From NCBI GenBank assembly GCA_963785725.1, contig CAWAWS010000039.1:448001-512000 (forward strand): a DNA stretch of 64,000 nucleotides, in the 5' to 3' direction. A program made the translations under genes and the position numbers. The DNA is from an uncultured delta proteobacterium (lineage in GTDB: Bacteria > Myxococcota_A > Polyangia > Palsa-1104). The notes under the pieces are model-generated. The model had not been told where the DNA came from. It was given only the letters and a program-made list of their open reading frames with translations, and did no database searches. This document shows, one piece after another, positions 11,122 through 34,097 of the stretch (its first letter is position 1; each line of letters opens with the position of its first letter).

Positions 11122-14314
<3,193 letters not shown>

Positions 14315-14328
<14 letters not shown>

Positions 14329-14755
14329 CGCCGAAATTACGCCGTATCGCGGCAGGCGCCGATACAGCGTAGCGCTGGGAATACGCTGTATCGAAGCGCA
14401 ATCGTCGATACGACGTAGCGCGGAGGATACGCTGTATCGAAGCGCGGTCGCCGATACGGCGCAGCGTGGGGAACGCGCTGTATTGAACCGCGAGCGCCGA
14501 TACGGCGTAGCGTGGGGAATGAGCTGTATCGAAGCGCGAGTGCCGATACGGCGTGGTGCGGAGAATACGCCGCGCGGTCGCCGATACAGCGTAGCGCGGA
14601 GAATACGATGTATTGAAGCGCGAACGCCGATACGGCGCAGCGTGGGGAACGCTTCTGTATTGAAGCGCGGTCGCCGATACGGCGTAGCGCGGAAAATACG
14701 CCGTATCAGGCGCGGCTATCGATACACTGTAGCGTCGAAAATACGCTGTATCGCG
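14315..14755. repeat. Tandem array of ~10 x 46-bp palindromic units
   Basis: Consensus ccGATACrGCGTAgcgyggrgaaTACGCyGTATCgaagcgcgrtcg; each unit has an inverted repeat; no unique spacers. Confidence 0.88.
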
Positions 14756-14857
14756 GCGGTCGATCCGAAACGTCTGCCGATCGACCGCCGGTGCCGGACC
14801 AGCGACTGCCGGCTTGCCGCAGCCGACCGTGGACTGCCGGCCGACCGCGGTGGCGCG

Positions 14858-14893
14858 GCGATACGCCGTAGCGGCCGCGCTACGGCGTATCGC
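14858..14893. terminator. Perfect 16-bp stem-loop between convergent genes, related to the array unit
   Basis: gcgatacgccgtagcg-gccg-cgctacggcgtatcgc; no U-tract. Confidence 0.5.
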
Positions 14894-14905
14894 GCGCCCG
14901 CGCCG

Positions 14906-16006
14906 CTAGTCGACGCCGTCCGCGAGCCAGACGCCCCCCTCGGCGCTGCGCGTGGCGATCGTCGGACAAGGCGGCAGCAAAACCCCGTTGCAGATGCCGT
15001 TGAAGCCGAGCTCGGGATGCCGCATTTTGCCGACGCAAGTGGCTCCCGTCGGCGTCCAATAGGCCTCGACCTGCTGAATCTCGCTGTCCTCGATGTGCGA
15101 CGAATCATCGATCAAGATCTGCGTGCCCGAGATCGTGTAGTAGCTGCTGTCGCCGCAATATGACGCGCGCTTCATGTGCAGCCCGGCCGCGAAGAAGTAG
15201 TCGCTGCCGCTGGCGTAGGGATAGCCCCACCAATAGACGGTCGCGATGCCGCCGCGGCGACAGGAGAGCGTGACCGTGTCCACCGTCGTCGCGTCGCGCG
15301 TGACCGCCGCCGTCGTCGGATTGACGGCGATGCCGCGCTGGAACACGACCGGATCGAGCTTGCCGTTGGCGTCGTAGCAGTACGATTGATCGGTCGTCGC
15401 GCCCTCGACCTTCCACGTCATGTCGTACTTGCGCAGCGGCCGCACGCCCGCCTCCGTCAGCACCGAGTCGAACCCAATGACGTACATATCGAGCTTGCCC
15501 GTCGCCGGATCGGCGAAGCTCAGGTGCAGCTTCAGGTTCACCAGCGCCGCATTGCTGACGTCGATCAGCGTACCGTTGGTCTCTTGCAGCACCCAGGTCG
15601 GCACGGTGTTGGTCTCCGTCACCGACTTGACCTCGAGCCCGGTGACGCCCTGATAGTCGGCCGACCAGACGCTGCCCGGCTCCGGCAACATCAGCCACTG
15701 ATTCTGCCGGGAGTCGTAGTAGCGCGCCTGAAACGTCACCGCCGTGCCCGTGTTCTGGAAGCTGGTGATCATCGCCTGCAGCGTGTCGTCGATATAGGCG
15801 TGGCCGCCCTCGTCGGTGTAGACGCCGACGCCGTTCGACATGGTGCAGTCGGTCGTCGGATCGGGACAGCGGTACTTGATCTCCGCCGTTTCGCTGCCGG
15901 TCGTCATCGTAGGCGGCGTCGTCTCCACGCCACAGCCGCCACACAACAACAGCGCGAACAGCACGCCCCCTTTGCTTCGCTCGCTGCCTGTCATTCCCAT
16001 GTTCAT
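14906..16006 (-). CDS. Secreted/lipoprotein with an ADYC-type Cys-containing C-terminal domain
   Basis: LSC..GGIA....WGY...HMKRASYCGD..YTISGTQI...EAYWTPTGATC; GGAGGGG before ATG 16006; LLLCGGC. Confidence 0.72.
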   Translation of the reverse strand: MNMGMTGSERSKGGVLFALLLCGGCGVETTPPTMTTGSETAEIKYRCPDPTTDCTMSNGVGVYTDEGGHAYIDDTLQAMITSFQNTGTAVTFQARYYDSRQNQWLMLPEPGSVWSADYQGVTGLEVKSVTETNTVPTWVLQETNGTLIDVSNAALVNLKLHLSFADPATGKLDMYVIGFDSVLTEAGVRPLRKYDMTWKVEGATTDQSYCYDANGKLDPVVFQRGIAVNPTTAAVTRDATTVDTVTLSCRRGGIATVYWWGYPYASGSDYFFAAGLHMKRASYCGDSSYYTISGTQILIDDSSHIEDSEIQQVEAYWTPTGATCVGKMRHPELGFNGICNGVLLPPCPTIATRSAEGGVWLADGVD

Positions 16007-16128
16007 TCCCCTCCGAATTCGTGACCCGCCGTACCCCTCAGCAAAGGGCGGGCCGCTGTCGTCATGGCGGCGAGCGCCCATAAGTCCACGGCCGGCGCGG
16101 GTTTCGCAGCGGCACGTGCCTCGACACC

Positions 16129-16144
16129 GCGGCGATTGTGCCAG
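16129..16144 (-). promoter_or_regulatory. Possible sigma54 -24/-12 promoter for the ADYC gene
   Basis: CTGGCACAATCGCCGC has GG-N10-GC spacing, but the -12 box is weak (CCGC rather than TTGC). Confidence 0.3.
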
Positions 16145-16195
16145 AACGTGTCAGCCGGCTACTCGCGGCGCCGCATGTATAATCGCGCCAGCCTC

Positions 16196-17614
16196 GTGGA
16201 CCATCCGACCCTTCCCCCCAGCGAACCCGGCCAGCGCGGCGGTAATGATGACGCCGATCATGTACCCGGCCTCGTCCTCGTTTTTTGCAGCGGCGCGCCG
16301 CGCGCGGAGGTCATGCGCCTCACGTCGGGCGCGCTCGAGCTCGGGCGCGGCGAAGGCGCCGCCGGCAAGCTCGCCGACGGTCGCGTCTCGCGCCGCCACG
16401 CGCTCGTCGAGCATGACGGCGGCGGCTTTCGCGTCACCGATCTCGGCAGCCAAAACGGCACCAGCGCCGACGCGCAGCCGCTGCCACCGCACACGCCGAC
16501 GACGCTGCAACGCCTACTGCGCGTGGGCGATTCGCTGTTGATGCCGCTGCCCGACGTGCGCCCGCTCGAGCGTCATCCGCTGCGGCGCGTCGACGGCATG
16601 ATCCGCGGCGCGGCGCTGCAGCTGGTGCTCGAGGACGCGGCGCGCGCGGCACGGGCCGGCGCGACTTTGCATATTCGCGGCGAGAGCGGCAGCGGCAAGG
16701 AGGGCGTGGCGCAGGCGTTCCATCGCGCCGCCGCGCGCGACGGCGGCCAGCTCGTCGCCGTCAACTGCGCGTCGATCCCGCCCAATTTGGCCGAGCGGCT
16801 GCTGTTCGGCGCCAAGCGCGGCGCCTACTCGGGCGCCGAGAGCGACGCCGCCGGTTATGTGCAAGAGGCCGACGGCGGCACGCTCTTCCTCGACGAGGTG
16901 GCCGAGCTCGACTTGGCGGTGCAGGCGAAGCTCTTGCGCGTGCTCGAGTCGAAGGAGCTCTTGCCGCTCGGCGCTTCCAAGCCGCGTAAAGTCGACTTCC
17001 AGTTCTGCTCGGCGACGCACAAAGATCTGCGAGCGCTCGTTGCTGGTGAGCGGCTGCGCGAGGATCTGTACTTTCGCATCGGCCGGCCGGCGTTGACGCT
17101 GCCGCCGCTGCGCAATCGTCCCGAGGAGATTCCGGCGCTGGTCGCCGACGAGCTGAGTCGCGCGACGCCGCCGGCGAGCGCGCACGTGTCGCTCGTCGAG
17201 CAGTGTCTGTTGCGCGCGTGGCCGGGCAACGTGCGCGAGCTCTTGGCCGAAGTGCGGGCGGCGGCGCAGACGGCGGCGCGCGACGGTGGGCGCGTCATGG
17301 CGCAGCATCTGTCGCCGACGGCGGGCAGCGCGTTCGGCGGGACGGCGGCGATGGCGACGGCAGCCGGCGCGGCGCTCCCGGCCGGCGATCCGGCGGGCAC
17401 GCCGACGTCGACGCCGACGCCGCGCAAGCGCATGCCGCAAGTCGACGACGATTGGCGACGGCGGATCCAGGACGCGCTGCGCGTCAACGGCGGCAACATC
17501 GCGGCGACGGCGCGGGCGCTCGGCCTGCATCGCACGCAGCTGCGCCGGCTGCTCGAGCGTCATCAGATCGACGTCGCCGACAGCGGCAGCGACGACGATT
17601 CCGTCGACGACTGA
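16196..17614 (+). CDS. FHA-domain sigma54-type enhancer-binding protein (AAA+, Fis-type HTH)
   Basis: FHA GR..SRRHA..DLGSQNGT; GESGSGKE; GAYSGA (GAFTGA variant); LFLDEV; WPGNVREL; NIAATARALG. Start uncertain. Confidence 0.9.
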   Translation: MDHPTLPPSEPGQRGGNDDADHVPGLVLVFCSGAPRAEVMRLTSGALELGRGEGAAGKLADGRVSRRHALVEHDGGGFRVTDLGSQNGTSADAQPLPPHTPTTLQRLLRVGDSLLMPLPDVRPLERHPLRRVDGMIRGAALQLVLEDAARAARAGATLHIRGESGSGKEGVAQAFHRAAARDGGQLVAVNCASIPPNLAERLLFGAKRGAYSGAESDAAGYVQEADGGTLFLDEVAELDLAVQAKLLRVLESKELLPLGASKPRKVDFQFCSATHKDLRALVAGERLREDLYFRIGRPALTLPPLRNRPEEIPALVADELSRATPPASAHVSLVEQCLLRAWPGNVRELLAEVRAAAQTAARDGGRVMAQHLSPTAGSAFGGTAAMATAAGAALPAGDPAGTPTSTPTPRKRMPQVDDDWRRRIQDALRVNGGNIAATARALGLHRTQLRRLLERHQIDVADSGSDDDSVDD

Positions 17615-17952: not shown

Positions 17953-18582
17953 CTATGGCGCGGTCGGACGCGTGAGCGGGCGTTGCATGCGGCGAAAGCC
18001 GTCGAGCCCGCGGCGACCGCGATAGGGACGCTCGCCGACGACGACGAAGCCGAGCCGTTCGTAGAGCCGCTGTGCGCGCGGGTTGCCGAACGAGACGTCG
18101 AATTCGGCGACGGTCAGCGACAGATCGGGCGTCGTGCACACATGCGCGAGGAACGCGGCGAACAGGCCTTGGCTGCGGCGATCGGCGACGACACAGGCGT
18201 TGGCGAGGAACAGGCTGTCGCGGCGCGGCGTGGCGAAGAGCGACGTCAGCGCCAACGAGCGCCACACCGCGCGCAAGAAGCGGCCGACGCCGAGCGCGCC
18301 GAAGGCCGAGCGCAGCGTGTGCAGCGACAAGCGGTTGATGTCGCGGCCGCGGTAGGCGGTCAGGGTGGCGACGAGCTGGCCGTCGGCGGCGATGGCGACG
18401 ATTTGGTGGCGATAGCCGAAGATGCCGTCGCCGCGCAGGAAGTCGCGGCGCAGGAACGGCTCGGGCCCGTCGTCGCCGAAGCGGAAGCAGGCGTCGACGA
18501 GGCCGCGCGACGACTCGTACATCAGCGGCACGACGGCGTCGGCGTCTTCGGGGCGCGCGGGGCGAAAGTGGAGCTCGGTCAT
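17953..18582 (-). CDS. GNAT N-acetyltransferase (in the lstF position)
   Basis: FRPARPED, acetyl-CoA motif RRSQGL, NPRAQRLYERLGF; ATGA overlap with the NRPS stop. Confidence 0.88.
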   Translation of the reverse strand: MTELHFRPARPEDADAVVPLMYESSRGLVDACFRFGDDGPEPFLRRDFLRGDGIFGYRHQIVAIAADGQLVATLTAYRGRDINRLSLHTLRSAFGALGVGRFLRAVWRSLALTSLFATPRRDSLFLANACVVADRRSQGLFAAFLAHVCTTPDLSLTVAEFDVSFGNPRAQRLYERLGFVVVGERPYRGRRGLDGFRRMQRPLTRPTAP

Positions 18583-21500
18583 GTCTGGGCCTCGGCGGCG
18601 GCGGCGCGGCGGACGTCGCGGATGGCGGCGCATAGTCCGCCCAGCGTCGGGCGGCGCAAGATGGGGCGAATGTGCTGCATGAAGCGCGGCTCGAGGTCGG
18701 CGCCGACGATGCGATGGCCGATGGCGGCGAAGAGCTGGACCATTTGCAGCGAGTCGCCGCCGAGGGCGTGGAAGTCGCTGTCGGGGTGGATGGCGGCGGC
18801 GTCGACGGCGAGCAGCTCGGACCAAATGGCGGCGACGGCCGCGGTCAGCGCGTCCGCCGATGCGGCCGGCGCGCCGTTTGCGCCGTGGACGGCCGCGGTT
18901 TGCGCGTCGGCGCGCGGCGACGCGAGCTGGGGCGCGTCCGCGCCGCGCGACGCGAGCTGGGGAGCGTGCGAGGCGAGCGGCGCGAGCTGGGGCGCGTTCG
19001 GCGAGAGTGGGGGCGCGTTCGCGGCGAGCGGCGCGACGATGTTCGCGGCGGGCGTGGCGAGGGTCGCGTCGCCGTCAGATGACGTCGGTGCGGTCGCCGC
19101 GCGCTGCATGTGGTCGGCGGGATTCGGCAGCCGCCGTAAGTCGGCCTTGCCGTTGACGGTCAGCGCAATCTCGTCGACCGCGAAGATGAACGACGGGATC
19201 ATGAACGCCGGCAGCTGACGCTCGAGCGCCCGTCGCAGCGCCGCCTCATCGACGACCGCGTGGCGCCGGGTTTCGTCCGCGCCCGTCGGCTGCGCGCCGG
19301 CGAGCGAGGTCTGCGCGGCGGTTTCGTCGATCACTGCGGGCCGACGAGATGCGTTGGCTGGCGTTGCCTGCGCGTCGGCGAGCGAGGTTCGCGAGGCGGC
19401 TTCGTCGCCGCTCGCTGCGCTTCGCGCGCGTTCGCCATCGATCGCGCTCGGCACGTAATACGCGCACAAGATCGGATCGCCGCCGGCGCCGCCCGCTCGC
19501 GCGCGACCGACGACCAGCGCCTGCGCCACGCCCGGCTGCGCCGCGATCACCGCCTCGATTTCGCCCGGCTCGATGCGATGGCCGCGAATCTTCACCTGCT
19601 CGTCGGCGCGGCCGAGGAACTCGAGCAGGCCGCGACCGTTCAGCCGTGCCAGGTCGCCGGTTCGATAGGCGCGGCGACCGTCAAGTAGCTTGACGAATCG
19701 TTCGCGATTCAGATCCGGACGGTCCAGATAGCCGCGCGCCAGACAGTCGCCGGCCAAGTACAGCTCGCCGCTGGCGCCGCGTGCGACTGGGCGGCGGTCG
19801 GCGTCGAGGAGGTGGGCTTGCATGTTGCGGCCGGGGACGCCGATGGGCACGGCCGCCAAGTCGCCGTCGCGCGCGGCGTCGAAGACGTGGCAGACGCAGC
19901 CGATGGTGGCCTCGGTGGGGCCGTATTCGTTGACGATGCGGCAGTCGGCGCCGAAGCGCGCTTGCGCTTTGCGTGCGAGCGTCATCGTAAGCTGCTCGCC
20001 GCCGACGATGAGCGTGCGAAAGCCGCGCGGCGCCGCTCCCTCGAGCTGCGTGATGAGCTGAAGGTGCGTCGGCGTCAGCTTGAGCGCGTTGGCGCCGCTG
20101 TCGTGCAGGATCGTGCGCAGCGTCAGATGATCGAGCGCCTCGGGCACGAGCGCGATGCTGCCGCCGGCCAGCAGCGGCGGGAAGATCGCCGTCGCCGTGA
20201 GGTCGAACGCGAGCGACGTGAAGAGCGCGAAGCGGCTGCCGGCGTCGATGCCGTAGGCCGCTTGGGCCCAGCCGACGTAGTTGACGAGGCTGCGATGCTC
20301 GATCTGCACGCCCTTCGGCTGCCCGGTCGACCCCGAAGTGTACAAAATGTAAGCAAGCGATCGAGGATCCTCGTCGATCGGCGTGAAGACACGATGTCTT
20401 TCCGTCGGCCTGAAAGCGCTGGGTTCGTTCGTCGGCGGCACGGCGCCGTGCGTGTCGACCGCCGCGACCGCGCTGTGCCCGTCGGTCGGTGCGACGGCGC
20501 TGTGCCCGTCGGTCGGTGCGACGGCGCTGTGCCCGTCGGTCGGCACGACGGCGCTGTATCTGTCGCGCGGCGCAACCGCGCTGTGTCCATCGAGCTGCCC
20601 AACGGAGCCGTGTTCGTCGAGCGGCGCAATGGCACTGTGTTCGTCGAGCGGTGCAACGGCACTGTGTTCGTCGGTCGGCGGAACCGGGCCGTGTCTGTCG
20701 ACCGCGACAACGGCGACGCGCGTGTCGGTCGGCGCAACGGTGGCGTGTGCTTCAGTCGGCACAAGGGCGCTGCGGTCTGCGGTCGACATCGCCGCGTCGT
20801 CGCCGAGCTCGTGGGCGAGCGCGAGGGCGCCGGTGAAGACGCCGTCGAGCCGCGCGGCGTGGGCGCGCGTCGTCAGGCAGAGCGCGGCGCGGGCGTCGGT
20901 CAGCAGCCAGCCGAGCCGCTCGGCGGGATATTGCGGATCGAGCGGCAGATAAGCGGCTCCAGCTTTGATGATGCCGAACATCATTACGATCGCTTGCGGA
21001 TCGCGGTCGACGAGCAGGCCGACGACTGCGCCGGCGCCGACGCCGCGGGCTCGCAGTGCGGCGGCCACGGCGTCCGAGCGTCGCGCCAGCGCAGCGTAGG
21101 TCACGGTCTCGTCGCCGCACACGAGCGCGACGGCGTCTGGCGTGCGCGCCGCCTGGTCGGCGAACAGGCCGGCGACCGTGCGCGCCGGAATCGGCGCCGC
21201 CGTGTCGTTGGCCGCCCACTCATCCAGGGACGGTCGAGAGCCGTCGTCATCATTAGTGGCGTCGGCCGGCGCTGGGGTCGTAGCCGGGCGTTCTTTGGCA
21301 GCGGCGCTCGGATGCTGTAGCCGGTCTGGCGCGCGGAGGTCTTCGCCGTCCAGCGTTCCAATGTCATTCCGCTCGGGCGCCGACACCGCGTCGAGACGCG
21401 GTTGAACGCTAACGTTGCGCGAGGGCGAGTTCGTGCCGTTGGCTATGGCTTCGCTGCGCGAGGGCGGGTTCGTGCCGTTGGCGACGCCGTCGCTGCGCGA

Positions 21501-22826
21501 GGGCGAGTTCGTGCCGTCGGTGACGGCTTCGCTGCGCGAGGGCGGGTTCGTGCCGTCGGCGACGCCTTCGCTGCGCGAGGGCGAGTTCGTGCCGTTGGCG
21601 ACGCCTTCGCTGCGCGACGGCGGGTTCGCGTCGCCGGTGACGGCTTCGCTGCTCGGCTGCTCGACGGCGGTGACGATGCGGTCGAGCAGCGCGTCGGCCG
21701 CGGCCGCGACCTCGGCGGGACAGACCAGCGTCAGCTCGACTCGATCGCGACACTCGATGGCGACGAGCGACAACGCCGCCAGCGGCACATGCACCGGCAG
21801 CGAATAGATCGTCGTCGCGCGGAAATCGCCACCGGACAGCGCCCGCGGATCGACGCGCCCGAGGTGCGACAGGATGGCCGTCGCCGCGAAATGTCCACGC
21901 CGGCGCAGACGCAACGACGCTTTGATGATGCTCGTCATCATCCAGATCGGCATCTTCGCCAGCGCGCCTTCCGAACCATCGACGGCGAGCTCGCGCTTCT
22001 CCGCCAACGCCGACAACAGCTGCTCGTAGAGGCCTTCCCAGGGTTCGTTCGGCTGCGCGTCGAGGAAGATGGGCAGGCTCAAGTTGCTCGTCGCGGACAG
22101 CGCCGGCGCATGACGGCGCAGATCGACGGGCACCATGAAGCGCAAACGCGTGCCGGGCGCGGCGTTGGCGGCCAACGTCGCCGCCAGCTTGGCGACGAGG
22201 CCGGGCTGCGCGCCGGCGAGCGTGCGCCGCTTCCAGACGAACGCGTCCGCTGCGTCTTGCGCGTTCGCCGCCGTCGTGGCGAGCGGCGACGGGCAGTCGA
22301 ACGTCGGTCGCGTCCGGCGATGGCGGGCGCCGAGCTGCGTCAAGAGCGCGACGTCGGTCATCGTCGCGGCGGCGGCGCGCAGCGGCTCACCGCGATAGGC
22401 GCGCCAGATCTCGTGGGCCCATATGAGCGCGCCCTTGCCGTCCATGACGCCGTGGAACGCGCGAATGATGACGGTCGTACGCATTGGGCGGCGGACGACG
22501 ACGACTTCGCAGGTCGGGCCGGCCTGCACGTCGAGCGACTGACGCCAGCGCGGCGACTCTTCGTCGGGCCGTTCGTCGCCGTCGACGACCGTGACCGGCG
22601 GCGCGACACCGCTCTCGACCCACTGCTTGCCGTCGAGGACGAGGCGCGCGCCCGGGCAGGCGGCCGCAGCTTCGGCGACGGCGCGCGTGAGCCGCGCCAA
22701 ATCGACGTCGCCCTCGCCGTCGATGAAGAGCTGAATCGCGAACGGCCCGGCGATGCGCGCGCCGGCCAAGTACAGCCGTTCGTTGGGCGAAACGTCGCGC
22801 CGAAATGTTGGAGTCGCCGTCATCAT
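18579..22826 (-). CDS. Single-module NRPS: condensation/acyltransferase - adenylation - PCP (LstE-like)
   Basis: FHGVMDG, YILYTSGSTGQPKGV, NEYGPTE, YRTGDL, QVKIRGHRIEPGEIE, NGK, PCP FHALGGDSL; no TE domain. Confidence 0.92.
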   Translation of the reverse strand: MMTATPTFRRDVSPNERLYLAGARIAGPFAIQLFIDGEGDVDLARLTRAVAEAAAACPGARLVLDGKQWVESGVAPPVTVVDGDERPDEESPRWRQSLDVQAGPTCEVVVVRRPMRTTVIIRAFHGVMDGKGALIWAHEIWRAYRGEPLRAAAATMTDVALLTQLGARHRRTRPTFDCPSPLATTAANAQDAADAFVWKRRTLAGAQPGLVAKLAATLAANAAPGTRLRFMVPVDLRRHAPALSATSNLSLPIFLDAQPNEPWEGLYEQLLSALAEKRELAVDGSEGALAKMPIWMMTSIIKASLRLRRRGHFAATAILSHLGRVDPRALSGGDFRATTIYSLPVHVPLAALSLVAIECRDRVELTLVCPAEVAAAADALLDRIVTAVEQPSSEAVTGDANPPSRSEGVANGTNSPSRSEGVADGTNPPSRSEAVTDGTNSPSRSDGVANGTNPPSRSEAIANGTNSPSRNVSVQPRLDAVSAPERNDIGTLDGEDLRAPDRLQHPSAAAKERPATTPAPADATNDDDGSRPSLDEWAANDTAAPIPARTVAGLFADQAARTPDAVALVCGDETVTYAALARRSDAVAAALRARGVGAGAVVGLLVDRDPQAIVMMFGIIKAGAAYLPLDPQYPAERLGWLLTDARAALCLTTRAHAARLDGVFTGALALAHELGDDAAMSTADRSALVPTEAHATVAPTDTRVAVVAVDRHGPVPPTDEHSAVAPLDEHSAIAPLDEHGSVGQLDGHSAVAPRDRYSAVVPTDGHSAVAPTDGHSAVAPTDGHSAVAAVDTHGAVPPTNEPSAFRPTERHRVFTPIDEDPRSLAYILYTSGSTGQPKGVQIEHRSLVNYVGWAQAAYGIDAGSRFALFTSLAFDLTATAIFPPLLAGGSIALVPEALDHLTLRTILHDSGANALKLTPTHLQLITQLEGAAPRGFRTLIVGGEQLTMTLARKAQARFGADCRIVNEYGPTEATIGCVCHVFDAARDGDLAAVPIGVPGRNMQAHLLDADRRPVARGASGELYLAGDCLARGYLDRPDLNRERFVKLLDGRRAYRTGDLARLNGRGLLEFLGRADEQVKIRGHRIEPGEIEAVIAAQPGVAQALVVGRARAGGAGGDPILCAYYVPSAIDGERARSAASGDEAASRTSLADAQATPANASRRPAVIDETAAQTSLAGAQPTGADETRRHAVVDEAALRRALERQLPAFMIPSFIFAVDEIALTVNGKADLRRLPNPADHMQRAATAPTSSDGDATLATPAANIVAPLAANAPPLSPNAPQLAPLASHAPQLASRGADAPQLASPRADAQTAAVHGANGAPAASADALTAAVAAIWSELLAVDAAAIHPDSDFHALGGDSLQMVQLFAAIGHRIVGADLEPRFMQHIRPILRRPTLGGLCAAIRDVRRAAAAEAQT
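20375..20785 (-). repeat. In-frame 27-bp (9-aa) repeat, ~15 degenerate copies, inside the A domain
   Basis: TDGHSAVAP-like units just before the A3 motif. Confidence 0.88.
21415..21655 (-). repeat. In-frame 39-bp (13-aa) repeat x6 in the C-A linker
   Basis: SRSE[GA]V[AT][ND]GTN[SP]P. Confidence 0.9.
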
Positions 22827-23176
22827 TAGGCCTGCCGGCTGCCGCAATGACGGCGATCGCGCGTCAGCCCAGGACGGCGTCGCAGCGCGCGCGGTGAAGT
22901 GTGGGGCGAGCTTGGCGTCGTGTGCGTGATGGGCGCCGCTGGTTGGGAAAAGGCGTCGTGCCGAAATGTTGGAGTCGCCGTCATCATTAGGCCTGCCGAC
23001 TGCCGCAATGACGCCGATCGAGCATCAGCCGAGAACGGCGTCGCAGCGCGCGCGGTGAAGCGTGCGGCGAGCTCGGCGTCGGGCACGTCGTCATTTGACG
23101 ACCGCCTGAATCGGCCGCGAAATCGCCGTGCGGCAGTTCGGGCGAGCGTGGCGTCGGGCACGTCGTCATTTGACGA
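22800..23176 (-). repeat. Duplicated gene-junction sequence forming two coupled mini-ORFs (23169-22987 and 22987-22826)
   Basis: A ~120-bp block including the NRPS start recurs at a 161-bp period; the reductase 3' end recurs at a 75-bp period; ATGA, TAATG and TAATG overlaps. Confidence 0.8.
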
Positions 23177-24225
23177 ACCGCGTGAATTCGTCGAGGCCGC
23201 CGATTTCGTCGACCCAGTCGCGCAATCGGCGTAGGCCGGTCGGCTGATCGATCGTCGGGCGAAATCCGAAGTCGCGGCGCGCGGCGGTCGTGTCGTACGT
23301 CGCCGTCAGCGTCAGGAGGCCGAGCGCGTAGCGCGACAGCGGCGGGGAGCGGCGATCGCCGAGGCCGGGCAGCTGCCACAAGACGTCGATGGCGCGGGCC
23401 AGCGCGCGCGCCATCGGCAACGGTATGCGCCGGCGCACGCGCGGCAGCTCGAACAGCTCGGCGAGCACGTTCGCGAACGGCCAGACGTCGGTCGGCTCGG
23501 CGTCGCACACGAAGTAGGCCTTGCCGCCGACCGCCGGCGAGCGCGCCGCCTGCAGGCATGCGGCGGCGGCGTGGTCGACGTAACAGAGGCTCGCCTTGAA
23601 CGCGCTTGCCGCCCGAGAGGTCGGGCAGTCGACCGGCGGCCAGCTTGGCGACGATCTTCGGCAGGAAGCCGGTGCGATCGCGCGGTCCCCAGATGCCGCG
23701 CGGCCGAATGGCGCAGGTGACGAAGCCGCGGCCGTTGGCGCCGAGGACGAGCTGCTCGGCCAGCGCCTTGGTCTCCGAGTACAAGTTCACGAAGCGAGGC
23801 GGATAAGGATAGCGCTCATCAATGGCCACCTGATCGCGATCGTCGGCGACGACGCTGGGGCTGCTGACGAACACGAAGCGGCTGACGCCGTTGCGGCGCG
23901 CGGCGTCGACGAGGGCGCGCGTGCCGGCGACGTTGGCGTCCCAGAATTGACGGCGCGTGCCGAAGTCGCTGACGCGCGCGGCCGAGTGGTAGACGACGTC
24001 GACGCCGCGCGTGGCGGCGGCGAGCGACTTGGGCTCGGTGACGTCGCCGGGGACGAGCTCGACGGCGCCTCGGTCGCTGGCGGTAACGGCGGCCGAGCGC
24101 GCGCGCAAATGAGCCGTGTCGCTCGTCGGCCGAACGAGCGCGCGCACGTCGTCACCGGCGGCGAGGCAGTGGTCGACGAGGTGGCCGCCCAAGAAGCCGG
24201 AGGCGCCGGTGACGAGGACCTTCAC
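23166..24225 (-). pseudogene. NAD(P)-dependent 3beta-HSD/OleD-like reductase (LstD-like) with a +1 frameshift at ~23595-23600 (may be a sequencing error)
   Basis: VLVTGASGFLGG, YSETK, RPRGIWGPRD in one frame; ASLCYVDHAA..GKAYFV..RRDFGFRP in another; span is 3n+1. Confidence 0.85.
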
Positions 24226-24587
24226 GTGCTCGGTCCCACGGGAAAGCGAGGCCGGACGAGGCGGCCGCCCAAGAAGTCGGCCGAACTGGCTGTGACTGCT
24301 CTCCGCTTGCACGGCCGTAAGGCAAAACCAGGCGTGACGAGCACGGCGCCCGAGCAATGCGCGGTGCCGGCCGCGCTCGCCGTTCCGCGGCGCGGCGGCG
24401 CGGCGAAGCCAGGCGGGACGAGCACGCCGCGCCCGAAATCCACCGCGTTGCGCGGCGGCGCGGCGAAGCTAGGCGCGACGAGCACGCCGCGCCCGAAATC
24501 CAACGCGCGGCGCGGCGGCACGGCGAAGCCAGGCGCGAGGAGCACGCCGCGCCCGAAATCCACCGCGCCGCCGATCAACGCCTTCAC
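24222..24587 (-). repeat. 60-bp repeat x3 plus a partial copy, forming a 121-aa ORF coupled at both ends
   Basis: agcacgccgcgcccgaaatcca at 24421, 24481 and 24541. Its GTG overlaps the ligase TGA; its TGA overlaps the reductase GTG. Confidence 0.8.
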
Positions 24588-26821
24588 GTGCGCGGCCCCG
24601 CTCCGGCGTCGAGGAACTTCCACCACGTCGCGCCATACAAGAACGTGTAAGCCACCGTTTGCGTCCGCGAGTAGCCGGCGCGCCGACCGCGCGGCAACGC
24701 CGTGAACAGCTGCAGCCCATGCACGACGACGCTCAGGAACACGTCGATCGCCCACAGCACCCGCAACAGCGACGGCAGCGGCACGACGAGGCCAATGATG
24801 ATGAACAACCAACCCGCGAGCGGAATCAGCTTGAGCGCGTGCGGCGGCGGCGCCAGCTGACGCGCGGCCCATTCGGCCAGCTGCCCGCGGTCGATCTTGG
24901 CGTTGTGGCGAATGTCGACGGGAAAGCCGCGATGAAACAGGAACGCGCGCGCGCCGCGCGTCAACGGATTCGCGGCCGCCAGCGCGATGAGCTGCCGCTC
25001 GATGGCCGGCCGGTTCCGCCACTGGTCGCGCTGCAGCTCGACGCACACCACCGGCTGTTGCGCGCCGATCGGCCCGACACCGACGAGCGCGCTGCGATAG
25101 ACGGCCGGATGCGCGTCGAAAATGCCCTCCCATTGCGCCGTGTACTGCGGTCCGCGCACCGTGTGCACCGTCTGGCTCTTGCGCCCGGCGAACCAGACGC
25201 GTCCGTCGCCGTCGACGCGGCCGAGGTCGCCCGTGCGATGCCAGCTGCGCGCGCCGTCTTCGATCTTCATGAGCGCGTTCGACTCGGGCGACTCGTGATA
25301 GCGGCGACTGACGAGCGGCCCGGCGATCGTCAGCTCGCCCACCTCGCCCGGCGCCGCCAGCAGCGCGTTGGACCAGCGCGTGATCGGGTCGTCGCTCGTG
25401 CGAATGACGCGCAGCTGCAGCGACGGCAGCGGCCGGCCGACGCAGCTGCCGTGGCCAGCCGCGCTGCGCGCCGAGAGCGAGCCCGCATGCTCGCCGTTCT
25501 TGGGAGATGATGCGTCTGCGAGCGTGGCATTTCCCGACCGAAGCGCGCCGTCCCGCGCGGGTCGGCCGGCGGCGCCATCGCCTGCGGCCGCAGCGACCGC
25601 GGCGGCAGCGCCGGTCACCGCATCGCCCGCGGCCGCGTCGCCGGTCGCCGCCGCGCCGGTCGCCGCCGCGCCGGTCACGGCATCGCCCGCGGCCGCGTCG
25701 CCGGTCGCCGCCGCGCCGGTCACGGCATCGCCCGCGGCCGCGCCGGTCGCCGCCGCGCCAGTCGCCGCGTCGCCGGCCGCCGTATCGCCGAACAGCTCGT
25801 CGGCGGCGATCGACGCGATCGGCAGCGCCTCGGTCGCGCCATACGTCACGTGCAGCCGCGCGTCCGCCGCCATTAGCCCGACGAACCGCCGCGCGATCGA
25901 CGGCAACACCGGCGCGCCGCCCGCAATCACCCGCCGCAGCGAAGGCAACTTATGATGATGCTCGACCGCATAGTCGCCCACCCGCCGCAAGAACGCGGGC
26001 GACGCGAACATATGCGTGACCTCGTGCTGCGCGATCGTCGCGATCATCGCCGCCGCGTCCGCCAGCGCCGGCCGGTTGGGATCGATCGGCGGCAAGATCG
26101 TCGTCGCGCCGATCAGCAAATGAAAGGCCGTGAACAGCGGCAGCGGCGCCAGCGCGACATCATCCGGCCCGTGCGCGAACTCGTGCTCGATGCTGCCGAT
26201 CATGGCGTCGGCGATGCCATGCGTGTACTCGACGCCTTTGGCCGGCCCGGTGGCGCCGGTCGTGAAGTTGATCATCAAGAGATCGTCGGCGCGCGTCTCG
26301 GCGATCGGAAACGGCCCGCTCGGCGCCGTGAAAGCGGCCGGCGGCGGCAGCGTGGCGCCGGTCCAGCCGAGCTTGCGCCCGACGGTGACCCAGCTCCGTA
26401 ACGACTCGAACGAGCGCGGAAACAGCACGCGCACGACGTGCGCCGCCGGAATGCCGACGAGCGCGTCGGCCCCGACGGTGCGATAGGCGTGCAGCATGCG
26501 TCCGAGGCCCATGCCCGGGTCGACGACGACCGGTACGGCGCCTACCTTGAACAGCGCGAACAGCACCGTGAACAGCTCGGGGCTTGGCTTGACCATGAGC
26601 AGCGTCTTCGTACCGCGCCCGATCCTGGCCGCGACCAGCGCGTGCGCCCAGCGGTCCGACTCCTCGTCGAGCTCGCGGAACGTCTTCGACGCATAATGAT
26701 GACGTGCGTCAGCATTGAAGTAGAGCGCGCGCTTGTCCGGCCAGCGCCGCGCGTTTTCCCGCAGCCGCGTGGCGACGTTCAACGGCGAGGCGTGCGGCGT
26801 CTGTGGCGCGAGCGTAGCCAA
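24584..26821 (-). CDS. OleC/LstC-type adenylate-forming beta-lactone synthetase with a C-terminal membrane extension
   Basis: DPGMG, FTTGATGPAKGV, YGATEALP, WHRTGDLG, WFAGRKS, OleC-type FPVDIRHNAKIDR; TTG start. Confidence 0.88.
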   Translation of the reverse strand: MATLAPQTPHASPLNVATRLRENARRWPDKRALYFNADARHHYASKTFRELDEESDRWAHALVAARIGRGTKTLLMVKPSPELFTVLFALFKVGAVPVVVDPGMGLGRMLHAYRTVGADALVGIPAAHVVRVLFPRSFESLRSWVTVGRKLGWTGATLPPPAAFTAPSGPFPIAETRADDLLMINFTTGATGPAKGVEYTHGIADAMIGSIEHEFAHGPDDVALAPLPLFTAFHLLIGATTILPPIDPNRPALADAAAMIATIAQHEVTHMFASPAFLRRVGDYAVEHHHKLPSLRRVIAGGAPVLPSIARRFVGLMAADARLHVTYGATEALPIASIAADELFGDTAAGDAATGAAATGAAAGDAVTGAAATGDAAAGDAVTGAAATGAAATGDAAAGDAVTGAAAAVAAAAGDGAAGRPARDGALRSGNATLADASSPKNGEHAGSLSARSAAGHGSCVGRPLPSLQLRVIRTSDDPITRWSNALLAAPGEVGELTIAGPLVSRRYHESPESNALMKIEDGARSWHRTGDLGRVDGDGRVWFAGRKSQTVHTVRGPQYTAQWEGIFDAHPAVYRSALVGVGPIGAQQPVVCVELQRDQWRNRPAIERQLIALAAANPLTRGARAFLFHRGFPVDIRHNAKIDRGQLAEWAARQLAPPPHALKLIPLAGWLFIIIGLVVPLPSLLRVLWAIDVFLSVVVHGLQLFTALPRGRRAGYSRTQTVAYTFLYGATWWKFLDAGAGPRT
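25575..25790 (-). repeat. In-frame 15-bp Ala/Gly-rich repeat in the ligase
   Basis: G[DA]A[AV][TA] units. Confidence 0.8.
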
Positions 26822-26826
26822 TGATG

Positions 26827-27711
26827 TTAGCGACGATAGATTGTGCAGGCGGTGGTCAGGCCGGCGCCGGCGGATACGAACAAGACCTGCTCGAAGCGCG
26901 CCGTCTGACCGCTCTTGCCGCCCTCATGAAAGCCGAGCGTCAGCGCCGACGTGTGCGGGTCGCCGCCGACGTCGACGCGTACCGTCGCCGCGTCGTCCAC
27001 TTTGAGCTGCGCGGCCAAGGCGGCGCCGAAGCGCGGCGTCACCTGCGACGTCACCAGCAGCGTCTTGCCGAGGTCGATGCGCTCGGCGACGACGTATTCG
27101 TGCACGGCGTCGCGCGCCAGCTCGATGAGCCGCTCGGCGTACCCGTCGTCGGTGTGCACGCTGATTCGCTCGCGTCCGTTCGGCCCGTCCTCGACGAGCA
27201 CGCCCTGCCGGCCGACGAAGCCGTCGTTGGAGTCGCGCACTTGCAGCCGGCCGAAGCCGCGCCCGTCGTCGGCGTCGTGCTGCAGCAGCATCGCCGCGCC
27301 CATCGTCGCGTAGGGAAAGCCGGGCACGTTCGTGCGCCCCGACGGATGCGCGTCGCTCGACACGATCAAGATCGACTGCCCGCGATCGACCGCCAAGAAC
27401 GCGCTCGCCACCTGAATCGCATTCAAGATGCCGCAGCCGCCGTTCATGAGGTCGAGCGACAACGCCGCCTTCTTCGTCGGAAACTTCACGTAATCGAGGT
27501 TGAGCCCGATCTCCTTGGCGACGAGCGCCGCCATCGCCGGCTCGACCATGTTGGCGTCGCGATAGACGCCGACGTTGATGAGCATGTCGATCTCTTCGAT
27601 GGCGACTCCCGCGTTCGCGAGGCAGTCCTTGGCGGCGAGGGCCGCGTGTGCGATGGAGCTGCCGATCCGGCCGTCGGTGGAGACGCCGGTCGCTTTGATG
27701 ATGGCGCCCAT
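26827..27711 (-). CDS. KAS III/thiolase-fold protein with degenerate catalytic residues (LstB-like)
   Basis: IDMLINVGVYRD..EPAMAA, DLMNGGCG; SQ in place of HQ, GDPHTS in place of GNT; AGAGL. Confidence 0.8.
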   Translation of the reverse strand: MGAIIKATGVSTDGRIGSSIAHAALAAKDCLANAGVAIEEIDMLINVGVYRDANMVEPAMAALVAKEIGLNLDYVKFPTKKAALSLDLMNGGCGILNAIQVASAFLAVDRGQSILIVSSDAHPSGRTNVPGFPYATMGAAMLLQHDADDGRGFGRLQVRDSNDGFVGRQGVLVEDGPNGRERISVHTDDGYAERLIELARDAVHEYVVAERIDLGKTLLVTSQVTPRFGAALAAQLKVDDAATVRVDVGGDPHTSALTLGFHEGGKSGQTARFEQVLFVSAGAGLTTACTIYRR

Positions 27712-27713
27712 CG

Positions 27714-28766
27714 TTAGGCCGCCTCGAGCGAGCTGATCGTCGCCGCCAAGCAGCCGGTCACGACGCCCGACGCCGCGGGCACGAGCAGAAACTTTGCGCC
27801 GCGCTTCACCTTCTTCTCCTGCAGATGCTGATAGAGCACGATGAAATGCGAGGTCGTCGCCGTGTTGCCGAGCTGCTCGACCGATACCAGCGACTGCGGC
27901 ATCTCGGTTCCGAAGATCGTGCTCGCGTGGCGCGAAAACTTGCGAATCGCCTTCGTCCCCACTTGGTGGTGCACGATATAATCGTATTTCTCCGCCGCGA
28001 ACGTCGTCCCGCGCTTGGCCAGGAAATCCATATGGAAGCGCGGCCACAGCTGAATGCGCTCTTCTTTATGCATTTCGGCGTTATTCGTATACAGCGCTGG
28101 TCCCGAATGCTCGATGCTCGGCATTCCGATACAAAGCTTCGAATATTCGGCGCAGGTCATGAGCTCGATATAATGAATCTTGTCGGCGTCGTTCTCCGCG
28201 CGATCGAGAATGACGGCCGCGCCCGAATCGCCGACGGTGAGCGAGCCGAACTGCGAGTCGAACGGCTCCTTGATCTCCTGGACGGCGGTATCGGCGATCG
28301 GCGTGATGCATTCGCCGGAGACGACCATTCCGTTACGAACGATGCCGGCGCGAATCATGCGATCGAGCAGGTGAACGCCGGTCATCATTCCCGCGCAGGC
28401 ATTGGAGACGTCGAAATGAATGGCCGAATGCGCGCCCAAACCGCGCTTCAAATGCAGCGCGAATGACGGCTCGAAATGCATCGCATAACTGCCGCCTTTA
28501 TATCGAGTAATCGACGCCGAGATAATGACGTCGAGATCGCGCGCGCGATAACGCGAGCGCTTCAAGCAGTCGCGCGCCGCCAACATCGCCAGCGCGAACG
28601 AGTCTTCGAACGACTCCGCCCGTTTGTCGTGCACGCGCCGCGTCTCGATGCCCGTGATCTCCTGCAGGTCGAACAGCGGCTCGAATTGCATCTGGCTGAT
28701 CAAGTCGCGCGTCGACACCTTCGTCGACGGCAAGTAGGCACCCAAAGCTTCGAACCGCGTATCCAT
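27714..28766 (-). CDS. KAS III/OleA-type Claisen condensing enzyme (LstA-like)
   Basis: GAYLP, ITGIETRR, FDVSNACAG, GDSGAA, HHQVG, GNTA; GGAGG before MDTRF. Confidence 0.9.
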   Translation of the reverse strand: MDTRFEALGAYLPSTKVSTRDLISQMQFEPLFDLQEITGIETRRVHDKRAESFEDSFALAMLAARDCLKRSRYRARDLDVIISASITRYKGGSYAMHFEPSFALHLKRGLGAHSAIHFDVSNACAGMMTGVHLLDRMIRAGIVRNGMVVSGECITPIADTAVQEIKEPFDSQFGSLTVGDSGAAVILDRAENDADKIHYIELMTCAEYSKLCIGMPSIEHSGPALYTNNAEMHKEERIQLWPRFHMDFLAKRGTTFAAEKYDYIVHHQVGTKAIRKFSRHASTIFGTEMPQSLVSVEQLGNTATTSHFIVLYQHLQEKKVKRGAKFLLVPAASGVVTGCLAATISSLEAA

Positions 28767-29753
28767 CCGTCCTCCGTTGAAGGCGCCCGCTTGTGCAAGC
28801 AAGGTGCCCTCGTGTTTCAGCGCCAAAGCCAGGCGGATGGCGGCTTCCAGAAATCGACCCTGGAGACTGCAGCCCCGCTTCTAAGTCCCCGTGGGGACAG
28901 CTGTACTCGGCGTGCGCTGTATAGGACGCAGTGGCCCTTACAACGTCGCCCTGGCCGCGTCTCGTCGTCGCGTCGAGCTTTCGACCCCGCCGTTACGCGC
29001 TACATCTCCATACCCCAAATCGATGCCGCGGTGAGTCAAAATGTTTCGGTCGGCGCGAATTAAATGATTCGCCGCGCGCATTCCACGCGGATGTCGGATA
29101 GTTGCGCTCGCCCGAGAAAATACGAAGAAAAAGCCGCTCGTGAGGCATCTACGTGACGAGAAGACGAGCGTGGCGCAAATCGGAAACATGGCAATCGAGG
29201 CTGCTCGGCGAATGCGAAATGTGAGCGGAGACGGCGACCGCGGCCGCGAAGCCATCGCGAACGACGCGGCGCTGTGCCTATATGGACGCGAGGCCGCGCG
29301 AGCTTGGGCTGCAGACGAAACATTCGGCGTGCATTTTCGCCGCGCGAAAACGGCGATCTCGGCAATCGCTACGGCCGCCACGGTCGTACCGTTGGTATGA
29401 CGCGCGCTGACGTGGTGTTGCGAGCGACACCGGCGCGAAATCGGCGCGAACGCGGTGCGCGCTCGACGCCGCGAAACCCGCGCGACGCCAGCGCGCGAGC
29501 GCGCCGCTTCGTCGACGGGCGCGGCGCGAATTTGGCCCGACCATTTCGCCCTCGACAGCGGGCGCTACGTTCGCTATCAAGCGTCGCGGCCAGGACCTCG
29601 CGCGGCGCGGCCCCAGCCTCGGCGCGATGCGTCATGGCACCAACGAGAAGTGCTCTTTAGTATCGCCGCTTTCGTAGGGTATAAGGAGCGCGTTGGTGGG
29701 CGGCGGGCAGGACGGGTCGCTCACATTTCACGAATCTGGACGGTGCTGCTTTG

Positions 29754-30773
29754 ATGAATAACGCGCATAAGATCGACTCCGCTCCGCTCGCGCCCGAGCT
29801 CTGCCTGCGCATGCATGACTTGATGGTGCGCGCCCGCGTTCTCGAAGAGCGGCTCGTCTCCATGTATCGCCAAGGCGATGGTTACTTTTGGATCGGCGGC
29901 CCCGGCGAAGAGGCGTTCAACGTGCCGCTCGGCCTGCTGGTGAAAAAGGGGCAGGGCGTGCAGTACGATTATCTGCACCTGCACTATCGCTCGTCGGCGA
30001 CGCTGCTGGCGATGGGCGCCGACCCCGTCGATTCCTTGCGGCAAATGAAGAACACCGCGACCGATCCTTATTCGCGCGGGCGTAATTTCGCCGGCCATTA
30101 CTCGGTCAATAAATGGAATATCCCGCCCGTTTCCTCGCCGATCGAAGTGCAATATTCGATCGCGCCCGGAACGGCGTTGGCGCAAAAGCGCGCCGGCGGC
30201 GACGGCATCACCATCGTCACCGGCGGCGACGCCGGCACCGCCGAAGGCGACTTCGCGACCTGCCTCGTATGGAGCTCGCGCCGCGGCCACGAATTACCGT
30301 TACTCATTCTCGTCACCAACAATCGCTGGGGTATTTCGACGAGCTGGGATGGCCAGCACGGCGAAGAGCGCATCTCCGATCGCGGCAAAGCGTTCGGCAT
30401 GCCGACGCGCACCATCGACGGCAACGATCCCGAAGTCAGCTATCGCGCGCTGCAAGAGGCGATGGATTACGTGCGCCGCGAGCGGAAGCCCTATTTGCTC
30501 GAGGCGAACGTGTCGCGGCTTTACGGGCATTCGTCGGCGTCGGGCGCGAACTTCGTGCAGAGCGAGAACGACTGCTTGGCGCGCTTCGAGTCGACGCTGG
30601 AGGAGCGCAAGCTGATTACGCGCGCGCAAGCCGACGAGACGCGGGCGCAATACACGCAAGAGCTGTTGAAGGCGCATAAGCGCATTCGCGACGAAGCGCA
30701 GCCGTCGGGCGACGATATCTTCAAGCACGTCTTTGCCGACGCGCCCGCGTTCGACGATCAGGAGGTCGGCTGA
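29754..30773 (+). CDS. 2-oxoacid (probably branched-chain) dehydrogenase E1 alpha
   Basis: TPP motif GDAGTAEGDF...NNRWGIS, IDGND, RLYGHSS. Confidence 0.88.
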   Translation: MNNAHKIDSAPLAPELCLRMHDLMVRARVLEERLVSMYRQGDGYFWIGGPGEEAFNVPLGLLVKKGQGVQYDYLHLHYRSSATLLAMGADPVDSLRQMKNTATDPYSRGRNFAGHYSVNKWNIPPVSSPIEVQYSIAPGTALAQKRAGGDGITIVTGGDAGTAEGDFATCLVWSSRRGHELPLLILVTNNRWGISTSWDGQHGEERISDRGKAFGMPTRTIDGNDPEVSYRALQEAMDYVRRERKPYLLEANVSRLYGHSSASGANFVQSENDCLARFESTLEERKLITRAQADETRAQYTQELLKAHKRIRDEAQPSGDDIFKHVFADAPAFDDQEVG

Positions 30774-31837
30774 TGTCGACGATGGTGCAGGCGATTCGCA
30801 TGGCGCTGCATGTCGGCGAAGAGCGCCTCGGCGTCACCGACATCTTCGGCGAGGACGTCGGACCGCCGCTCGGCGGCGCCTTTACGCAGACGCAGGGCCT
30901 GAAGACGTCGTGGAATTCGCCGCTCGACGAGCGCGGCATCGTCGGCGCGGCCATCGGGCTCGCGCTCGCGGGTCAGCGTCCCGTCGCCGAGATTCAGTTC
31001 TGCGACTATGCGTTCAACGCGATCGATCTATTGAAGCTGGCGGGCAACATTCGCTGGTCGTCGGCGGGCGATTGGGAAGTGCCGATGGTGCTGATGACGC
31101 CCGTCGGCGCCGGTATTCGCGGCAGTATTTATCATTCGCACTCGTTCGACGCGCAGGCGACGCGTCTGGCCGGCTGGAAAGTGGTCATGCCGTCCAATCC
31201 GCGCGACGCCTACGGCCTCATGTTGTCGGCGATTCGCGATCCGAACCCGGTCATGTATTTGATGCCCAAGGCGCTGCTGCGGGTCAAAGGCGGCGAGGGT
31301 CAGGACGTTCCCGGCGAGCCGGCGAATCCGCGCGAGCTGTCGAAGATGATCGACGCGCCGCTCGGCGAAGGGCGCAGCGATTGGTCGCCCAATTGGCCGG
31401 CGCTCGAAGAGCTGTTCGTGCCCATCGGCAAGGCGCGCGTCGCGCGCGCCGGTCGCGACGTCACGCTGATTACCTACGGTCGCAACGTGCATATGGCGCT
31501 GGCGTCGGCCGAGGAGTTGGCGGCCGAAGGCATCGACGTCGAGATCATCGATTTGCGCTCGCTGCATCCTTACGATTGGCCGGCGATCGTCGAGAGCGTC
31601 ACCAAGACGAACCGCGTCATGTGCGTCAATGAGGACACCGAGATCACCAACTTCGGTGAGCACTTGATTCGCCGCATCGTCGAGGAGCTGTTCTACCAGC
31701 TGCACGCGCCGCCGAAGCTGTTGGCGGGCGCGCACGTTCCGGGCGTCGGGCTCGCCGACAACCTCGAGCACGCCAGCGTGCCGCAGACCGGCCGCATCAC
31801 GGCCGCGCTCCGCGAGCTCGCCAAGCACGTGCCTTAA
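30773..31837 (+). CDS. 2-oxoacid dehydrogenase E1 beta
   Basis: GEDVG..GGAF, PVAEIQFCDY, IIDLRSLHP. Confidence 0.9.
   Translation: MSTMVQAIRMALHVGEERLGVTDIFGEDVGPPLGGAFTQTQGLKTSWNSPLDERGIVGAAIGLALAGQRPVAEIQFCDYAFNAIDLLKLAGNIRWSSAGDWEVPMVLMTPVGAGIRGSIYHSHSFDAQATRLAGWKVVMPSNPRDAYGLMLSAIRDPNPVMYLMPKALLRVKGGEGQDVPGEPANPRELSKMIDAPLGEGRSDWSPNWPALEELFVPIGKARVARAGRDVTLITYGRNVHMALASAEELAAEGIDVEIIDLRSLHPYDWPAIVESVTKTNRVMCVNEDTEITNFGEHLIRRIVEELFYQLHAPPKLLAGAHVPGVGLADNLEHASVPQTGRITAALRELAKHVP

Positions 31838-31919: not shown

Positions 31920-34097
<2,178 letters not shown>

Follow-up and report, generated by a model that had tools for sequence, protein, structure and literature searches.

Lipstatin, the parent of orlistat, and related compounds act as covalent inhibitors on serine hydrolases, lipases among them, and esterastin from Streptomyces lavendulae MD4-C1 presumably carries an N-acetyl-asparagine ester. 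No gene cluster for esterastin was found in the literature searched, and subscription papers may describe one. Lipstatin is encoded by the lstABCDEF genes of Streptomyces toxytricini, a cluster that we compared by its published description and that includes a formyltransferase according to the nocardiolactone paper (10.1101/856955). The other described systems considered here are nocardiolactone nltABCD of Nocardia and the olefin genes oleABCD of Xanthomonas and Shewanella. We analyzed a stretch of 64,000 nucleotides (hereafter the window) from an uncultured delta proteobacterium, spanning positions 448,001 to 512,000 of contig CAWAWS010000039.1 (assembly GCA_963785725.1), which contains a lipstatin-family operon with a GNAT-type acetyltransferase as its sixth gene. 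Judged from its genes, this operon probably directs the synthesis of an N-acetyl-asparaginyl ester of a dialkyl β-lactone (esterastin type), a predicted inhibitor of serine lipases and esterases.

Six co-oriented genes, all of the minus strand, make up the operon (28766 to 17953). Family scans (Pfam/NCBIfam) assigned them, in order, to KAS III (PF08545/PF08541; KAS for 3-ketoacyl-acyl carrier protein synthase), a weaker KAS III, an AMP-binding enzyme, a 3β-HSD reductase, a nonribosomal peptide synthetase (NRPS) with adenylation (A) and peptidyl carrier protein (PCP) domains, and a weakly matching GNAT. Genes 1, 2 and 3 are tightly spaced, genes 5 and 6 overlap by ATGA, and the gaps between genes 3 and 4 and between genes 4 and 5 are filled with tandem duplications. 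The identical six-gene order recurred in 7 of the loci that we retrieved, which argues that the operon is not a chance assembly. Loci of Krasilnikovia, Streptomyces inhibens, Streptomyces sp. HNM0575 and an Actinomycetota metagenome-assembled genome (MAG) share its composition, order and Asn-type A-domain code at 44–68% identity per gene, but they have actinomycete hosts, form a separate clade and lack the long repeat insertions. Like lst, the operon combines the A-B-C-D-E plus capping gene order with a triad-bearing KAS III and its triad-less Glu partner, a β-lactone synthetase, a reductase and a single NRPS; it differs in having a GNAT in place of the formyltransferase, the code DLTKIGEIGK instead of a DIFALGG-type code, and a non-actinomycete host. 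A lipstatin cluster in the strict sense (N-formyl-Leu) is ruled out by the GNAT as gene six and by the non-Leu code, formyltransferases being found in 18 other loci. The sequence-only reading of this DNA, which had listed the six genes in this order without an α/β-hydrolase among them, was right on both counts. Its equation of the cluster with lstA-F holds for gene order A to E plus a capping gene and fails for the nature of gene six and for the code, so that of its two labels esterastin-type fits better than lipstatin. It had also called the cluster complete: all 6 genes are indeed present, and because the reductase is frameshifted, completeness depends on that frameshift being an error, which is likely.

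The first gene (27714..28766, minus strand) encodes an LstA/NltA-type KAS III of 350 amino acids, 58–68% identical to actinomycete homologues that head A-D operons, whose triad C123-H267-N301 was invariant across 42 aligned homologues. By alignment, the second gene (26827..27711, minus strand) encodes an LstB/NltB-type partner of 294 amino acids that has no Cys-His-Asn triad; the catalytic Cys position is Gly/Ala, and Glu57 was invariant in 23 aligned rows. LstA is reported to have a triad C128-H271-N305 and LstB an essential E60, the two being active only as a heterodimer (PMC12141560), and the nocardiolactone paper describes NltB as lacking the triad and its E57 as essential (10.1101/856955). 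The triad and Glu57 of the window correspond to these residues. The OleA-type model scored 130 bits with the KAS III, against a cut-off of 285. Because of the triad, the Glu57 partner and the OleA score far under its cut-off, we assign the pair to the LstAB type and not to OleA. Elsewhere in the assembly no OleA match exceeded the cut-off. Counterparts of LstA and LstB are reported to be widespread (PMC12141560), and genomes of this class (L213-L221) contained LstA/LstB-like pairs of 37–42% identity with the other operon genes absent from the retrieved stretches; such pairs on their own would be heterodimeric KAS III enzymes serving other pathways.

The third gene (24584..26821, minus strand) encodes a 745-residue OleC/LstC-type β-lactone synthetase. 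It scored 581.6 bits with PRK09274 (cut-off 478), followed by two olefin β-lactone synthetase models with 458 and 408 bits, under their cut-offs, while ordinary acyl-CoA ligase models reached at most 158 bits. In a four-gene tree (described below) it grouped with NltC-locus proteins, and it is the sole gene of the assembly to score as OleC over the cut-off. The ligase bears a 102-amino-acid repeat insertion (residues 349–450) and a hydrophobic C-terminal tail, common to many homologues, with a weak DUF1145 match. The fourth gene (23166..24225, minus strand, PF01073) encodes an LstD/OleD-type reductase that is split by one extra base near 23595. All 7 whole homologues compared matched both halves, in two frames that switch near that position, and the 3 nearest database homologues (90, 90 and 83% identity) are whole and read through the break point, those at 90% identity with 348 amino acids. 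As a frameshift background we used 189 intact open reading frames (ORFs) from 20 stretches of 2 genus-mates, 130 of which had an orthologue in this assembly. Fifteen of these 130 orthologues (~12%) were frameshifted here, and the reverse test in the relatives gave 2 of 114. At this rate, about one break is expected from assembly error in an operon of this size, and with the close homologues whole, the frameshift in the reductase is probably such an error. More generally, with ~12% of the tested genes frameshifted, the assembly alone is not enough to call a broken gene of this genome a pseudogene.

The fifth gene (18579..22826, minus strand; AMP-binding and PP-binding matches) encodes an LstE-type NRPS of 1415 amino acids with a C-like/A/PCP organization, an HxxxDG motif (H125, D129), the PCP motif GGDSL and 5 low-complexity insertions. 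Its N-terminal 395 amino acids gave no match in Pfam or PDB sequence searches. An AlphaFold2 model of this region (pLDDT 93) was compared with Foldseek, which returned 279 matches at E 0.001 or better; the matches were condensation (C) domains, with a best E of 2e-20. The HxxxDG motif is conserved, and the predicted fold suggests that this part is a C domain. The A-domain code reads DLTKIGEIGK at positions set from motif anchors, and the PDB search matched GrsA (1amu, E 2.7e-45). One residue away from it is DLTKIGEVGK, which one study discusses with Asn/β-cyano-Ala domains (PMC12283262). Table 1 of another (PMC10391617) gives DATKIGEVGK for a domain loading Asn or Asp and DLTKVGHVGK for one loading Asp, and by these codes Glu at position 7 is the Asn-type letter and His the Asp-type one. 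Our best call is therefore that the A domain of the window is predicted to load Asn, with Asp as the alternative. An Asn-type code was found in 27 of 39 database NRPS homologues under 1500 amino acids.

The sixth gene (17953..18582, minus strand) encodes a GNAT-type acetyltransferase of 209 amino acids, with Pfam GNAT matches below the cut-off. It is 45–61% identical to 8 homologues, all 4 of those scanned exceed the PF00583 cut-off, and Atlas features placed it with GNATs at 0.98. Its ATG overlaps the NRPS stop codon, suggesting that the 2 genes are translationally coupled. To relate capping gene and code, we used a set of at least 159 loci retrieved with a KAS alignment (80 genome and 79 metagenome, among the matches listed). 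An LstE-type NRPS with a readable code was present in 28 of them, two truncated NRPSs having been dropped. Among the 11 loci with a DLTK code, 7 had a GNAT (a count inflated by kinship, as 3 are from Krasilnikovia), 1 a formyltransferase and 3 neither within the retrieved stretch, and each of the 17 loci whose code differed carried a formyltransferase and no GNAT. The 2 families never occurred together in the 28 loci, and scans confirmed their identity for 4 GNATs and 6 formyltransferases. DIFALGG-type codes were seen in formyltransferase loci, including that of S. virginiae. Code and capping enzyme thus appear to sort these operons into formyl and acetyl-Asn types. Going by the structure of esterastin, an esterastin-type set is an Asn-activating NRPS with an N-acetyltransferase, and both are present here as far as the sequence tells; the N-acetyl-Asn ester of esterastin is what such an NRPS and a GNAT would add, a likeness that we do not extend to product identity. 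Some loci predict other analogues: an N-formyl-Asn form in Streptomyces sp. NPDC007205 (L050; Asn code with formyltransferase), a free-amine form in two Actinoplanes (L020, L021; Asn code with no capping gene nearby) and an Asp form in Dactylosporangium (P0330; Asp-type code).

From the residues, families, gene order and co-variation observed, we infer the chemical steps, their order and the acyl chains as follows. By analogy with LstAB and NltAB, the KAS III heterodimer, with Cys123-His267-Asn301 in the first protein and Glu57 in the second, would condense two substrates head to head, a 3-hydroxyacyl-CoA and another acyl-CoA, both chains presumably coming from the host fatty-acid pool. The reductase would then reduce the β-keto acid, provided that the frameshift is an error, and the OleC-type enzyme would use ATP to adenylate the resulting acid and form the β-lactone ring, as for NltC and OleC. 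The A domain is predicted from its code to load Asn on the PCP, the GNAT, to judge by its co-occurrence with this code, may acetylate the Asn amine, and the C domain recognized by its predicted fold could transfer N-acetyl-Asn as an ester to the hydroxyl left free on the chain. Since the operon encodes no OleB, the lactone would survive as the warhead; PMC7064751 reports β-lactones as the end products of oleACD clusters that lack oleB.

The nlt and ole systems lie further away. The window shares the A-D order with Nocardia nlt loci (58–61% identity for A, 35–39% for B, about 40–45% for C and 49–58% for D), and Glu57 has the same number in both. The Nocardia loci differ in having no A domain or capping gene and a stand-alone C-like gene instead. 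Such a homologue of the LstE C-like domain, of ~400 amino acids, 36–40% identical and with no A domain, is present in 45 of 45 Nocardia loci whose sequence continues far enough past the reductase (among L032-L094, e.g. L039:14912-16174); in L039 it is followed by an MMPL exporter. The nocardiolactone paper describes only nltABCD (10.1101/856955), and the real product of these loci may be further esterified and exported. With oleABCD the window shares OleC- and OleD-like enzymes and the logic of head-to-head condensation; it differs from that system, in which OleA is a homodimer and OleB is present, by its far sub-threshold OleA score, the absence of OleB and the added NRPS and GNAT. Membership in the olefin pathway was rejected on the OleA score and on the lack of OleB in the cluster.

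The host is likely a member of the Polyangia, and likely a myxobacterium, as suggested by 2 window proteins outside the operon that share 90% clusters with records labeled 'Polyangia bacterium', those labels being the basis of the assignment. A member of the 90% cluster of the KAS gene itself has an accession of the same series as 'Polyangia bacterium' records, which we take as a link to them. One KAS homologue and one homologue of the adjacent 2-oxo-acid dehydrogenase E1-β gene each lie on contigs of 35,075 bases, which are probably one and the same contig repeating the KAS/E1-β linkage. Both the NRPS-GNAT junction and that between KAS B and the ligase are spanned in related soil contigs, relatives of the operon genes at the 90% level occur in many independent assemblies, and the GC content at third codon positions (GC3) is 0.80–0.92 in the 6 genes and 0.81–0.90 in the flanks. 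A four-gene tree (LG+G4; 30 rows, 1383 columns) placed 20 rows, 19 of them named actinomycetes, in one clade (100/100) and the window outside it, in a loose group (81/98) with 2 metagenome contigs, a Sandaracinaceae MAG and a genome from the same class as the window. This tree is rooted on 2 metagenome rows with long branches, and hosts are named for only a minority of the sister rows, so that any direction of older transfer drawn from it would be tentative. Nesting of the window with Micromonosporaceae was rejected with p-AU (approximately unbiased test) of 5.7e-10, an optimistic value because this family was chosen after the identity table and a first tree. In the NRPS tree, 9 Asn-code proteins from metagenomes grouped with the window protein (100/100), and every named actinomycete fell elsewhere. 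Tree placement, GC3 and independent relatives together make a recent transfer from an actinomycete or a chimera unlikely. The sequence-only reading is thus upheld in that the contig is probably neither actinobacterial nor chimeric, and likewise in that the ligase stands apart from ordinary acyl-CoA ligases and the KAS pair is related to LstA/B. Its statement that the family is known only from actinomycetes fails for the core, since LstA/B are widespread and A-D occur in the Sandaracinaceae MAG and the own-class genome, and stands in that the full aminoacylating set is new for Polyangia.

The distribution of the operon is patchy. In genus-mates the left flank is syntenic as far as the sigma-54 regulator, after which synteny ends, and the operon is missing. 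No close KAS match was found in 60 relatives, a KAS match at 1e-50 was found in 13 of 400 class genomes, and a GNAT match at 1e-20 in none of the 400. Of 12 class loci with flanks, 10 had A and B only, one had A-B-C on a short contig, and one had a modular polyketide synthase (PKS), A-D, a stand-alone C gene and a thioesterase. In the last (L211, G070:C92, 8251-19984), the PKS lies directly upstream of A-B-C-D and is followed after these by the C-like gene and the thioesterase, which suggests a PKS-fed β-lactone variant. In the Sandaracinaceae MAG (L023, 10001-17934), A-B-C-D are followed by 2 glycosyltransferases (GT2/21-like and EryCIII-like) with no NRPS, and a glycosylated β-lactone lipid is a possible product. 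The C-like domain has matches of 29–39% identity in 35 of 400 genomes of the phylum (including L224-L242).

Several observations weigh against an acetyl-Asn β-lactone as the product. As assembled, the reductase is broken by its one-base frameshift. The NRPS and ligase carry 6 insertions of 12–141 amino acids that are absent from most homologues, 2 of them within the A domain. The GNAT scores under the Pfam cut-off and has Phe in its acetyl-CoA motif region where most homologues have Tyr/Gly. The code rule has its exceptions (1 Asn-code locus with a formyltransferase and 3 with neither gene), and 3 of its 7 GNAT loci are Krasilnikovia kin. Asn and Asp are hard to tell apart from codes (PMC12283262). 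Two haloalkane-dehalogenase-like hydrolases elsewhere in the genome are OleB candidates, and the assembly is 88% complete. One alternative is that the same pathway uses another decoration, with the NRPS loading Asp or a modified Asn, or with the amine left free and the GNAT doing another job such as self-protection. Asp and Asn codes do overlap, one Asn-code domain also loading Asp in Table 1 of PMC10391617, 4 of the 11 Asn-code loci have no GNAT in the retrieved stretch, and the GNAT scores are weak. However, Glu at code position 7 is Asn-type by the same table, and the GNAT never accompanies a formyltransferase in the 28 loci and appears translationally coupled to the NRPS here, so that we regard this explanation as unlikely, if a serious contender. 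The broken reductase and the insertions could instead be signs of a decaying operon, in a strain that makes nothing or only a β-keto intermediate. The insertions lengthen the NRPS to ~1415 amino acids, compared with 1063 in the nearest whole homologue, and the operon was not found in 4 genus-mates. Yet frameshifts are frequent in this assembly (15 of 130 ordinary genes), with about one break expected per 3,300 codons, all 6 insertions are in frame with the catalytic motifs intact, and tandem repeats are common over the whole window; decay therefore seems an unlikely explanation.

A third way to read the operon is that the β-lactone is only an intermediate, decarboxylated or opened by an OleB-like hydrolase encoded elsewhere to give an olefin or an amino-acyl surfactant lipid of the envelope. 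The best NCBIfam matches include OleC and OleD models, the 2 hydrolases mentioned above are available in the genome, and the ligase has a membrane-type tail. The operon itself has no hydrolase, however, the KAS pair is of LstAB type with an OleA score less than half its cut-off, and the β-lactone end products reported for oleACD clusters without oleB also speak against this reading, which we consider improbable. The results above had already disfavored an actinomycete origin of the operon, by mis-joining or by recent transfer into the contig. Such an origin would fit the 78 actinomycetes among the 80 best named loci of the KAS search and the genus-mates that share the left flank and not the operon, but the genes lie outside the actinomycete clade with full support, their GC3 matches the flanks and their 90%-level relatives come from many independent assemblies, and we give this explanation almost no weight. 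An esterastin-type product thus remains the reading that we favor.

What is new here is a full aminoacylating operon of the acetyl-Asn type in Polyangia, together with a code/capping rule that has cultured carriers; the pathway type itself is known. The literature searched (titles and abstract starts) contained no myxobacterial lipstatin-type cluster. The rule offers candidate genes for esterastin and directs attention to cultured Krasilnikovia and Streptomyces carrying the same set. With the myxobacterial copy, the full aminoacylating pathway reaches beyond actinomycetes, and its acyl chains there may differ. Since the chemistry is known, the gain lies in range, evolution and analogues and not in a new mechanism. 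A broader scenario, possible though less likely than not, takes the Asn plus GNAT operon to be the esterastin-type gene set and the most common form of the family, and perhaps the most ancient. Its home would be an uncultured lineage of soil bacteria that counts myxobacteria among its members, and the actinomycete clusters for lipstatin and nocardiolactone would branch from it as a single clade; the myxobacterium studied here would then produce a novel lipase inhibitor, possibly on branched chains for which the neighboring 2-oxo-acid dehydrogenase supplies the primers.

To the right, the operon is bordered by divergent genes for 2-oxo-acid dehydrogenase E1 α and β (29751-31837), one homologue of which is named 2-oxoisovalerate dehydrogenase, and the ~1 kb in between (28767..29750) is, from the sequence, presumably a divergent promoter region common to both. 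The nearest hydrolase gene, a prolyl oligopeptidase (31920-34097), lies past them. In 3 genus-mates and 1 family member, nothing matched the E1 genes better than 28–30%, and these genes may have come with the operon and could supply branched primers. Degenerate tandem duplications occur throughout the window, in coding loops and at gene junctions (66 Tandem Repeats Finder rows; for example 14307-14753, 20431-20715, 21416-21652 and 25579-25790), and some are missing from related soil contigs. At the reductase-NRPS junction (22793..23176; repeat families D5 and D11), two 135-nucleotide copies hold the NRPS start, and the reductase stop region is repeated as well; between ligase and reductase (24386..24568) repeat searches found three 60-nucleotide tandem copies, at a place where a related soil contig skips 84 bases. 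The assembly contains 2 genes of the phosphopantetheinyl transferase family. To the left, where a sigma-54 activator is the immediate neighbor of the operon, positions 11122-17614 encode a Ser/Thr kinase-TPR protein, an ADYC-domain protein and this FHA-sigma-54 activator, and the kinase and the activator are syntenic in genus-mates.

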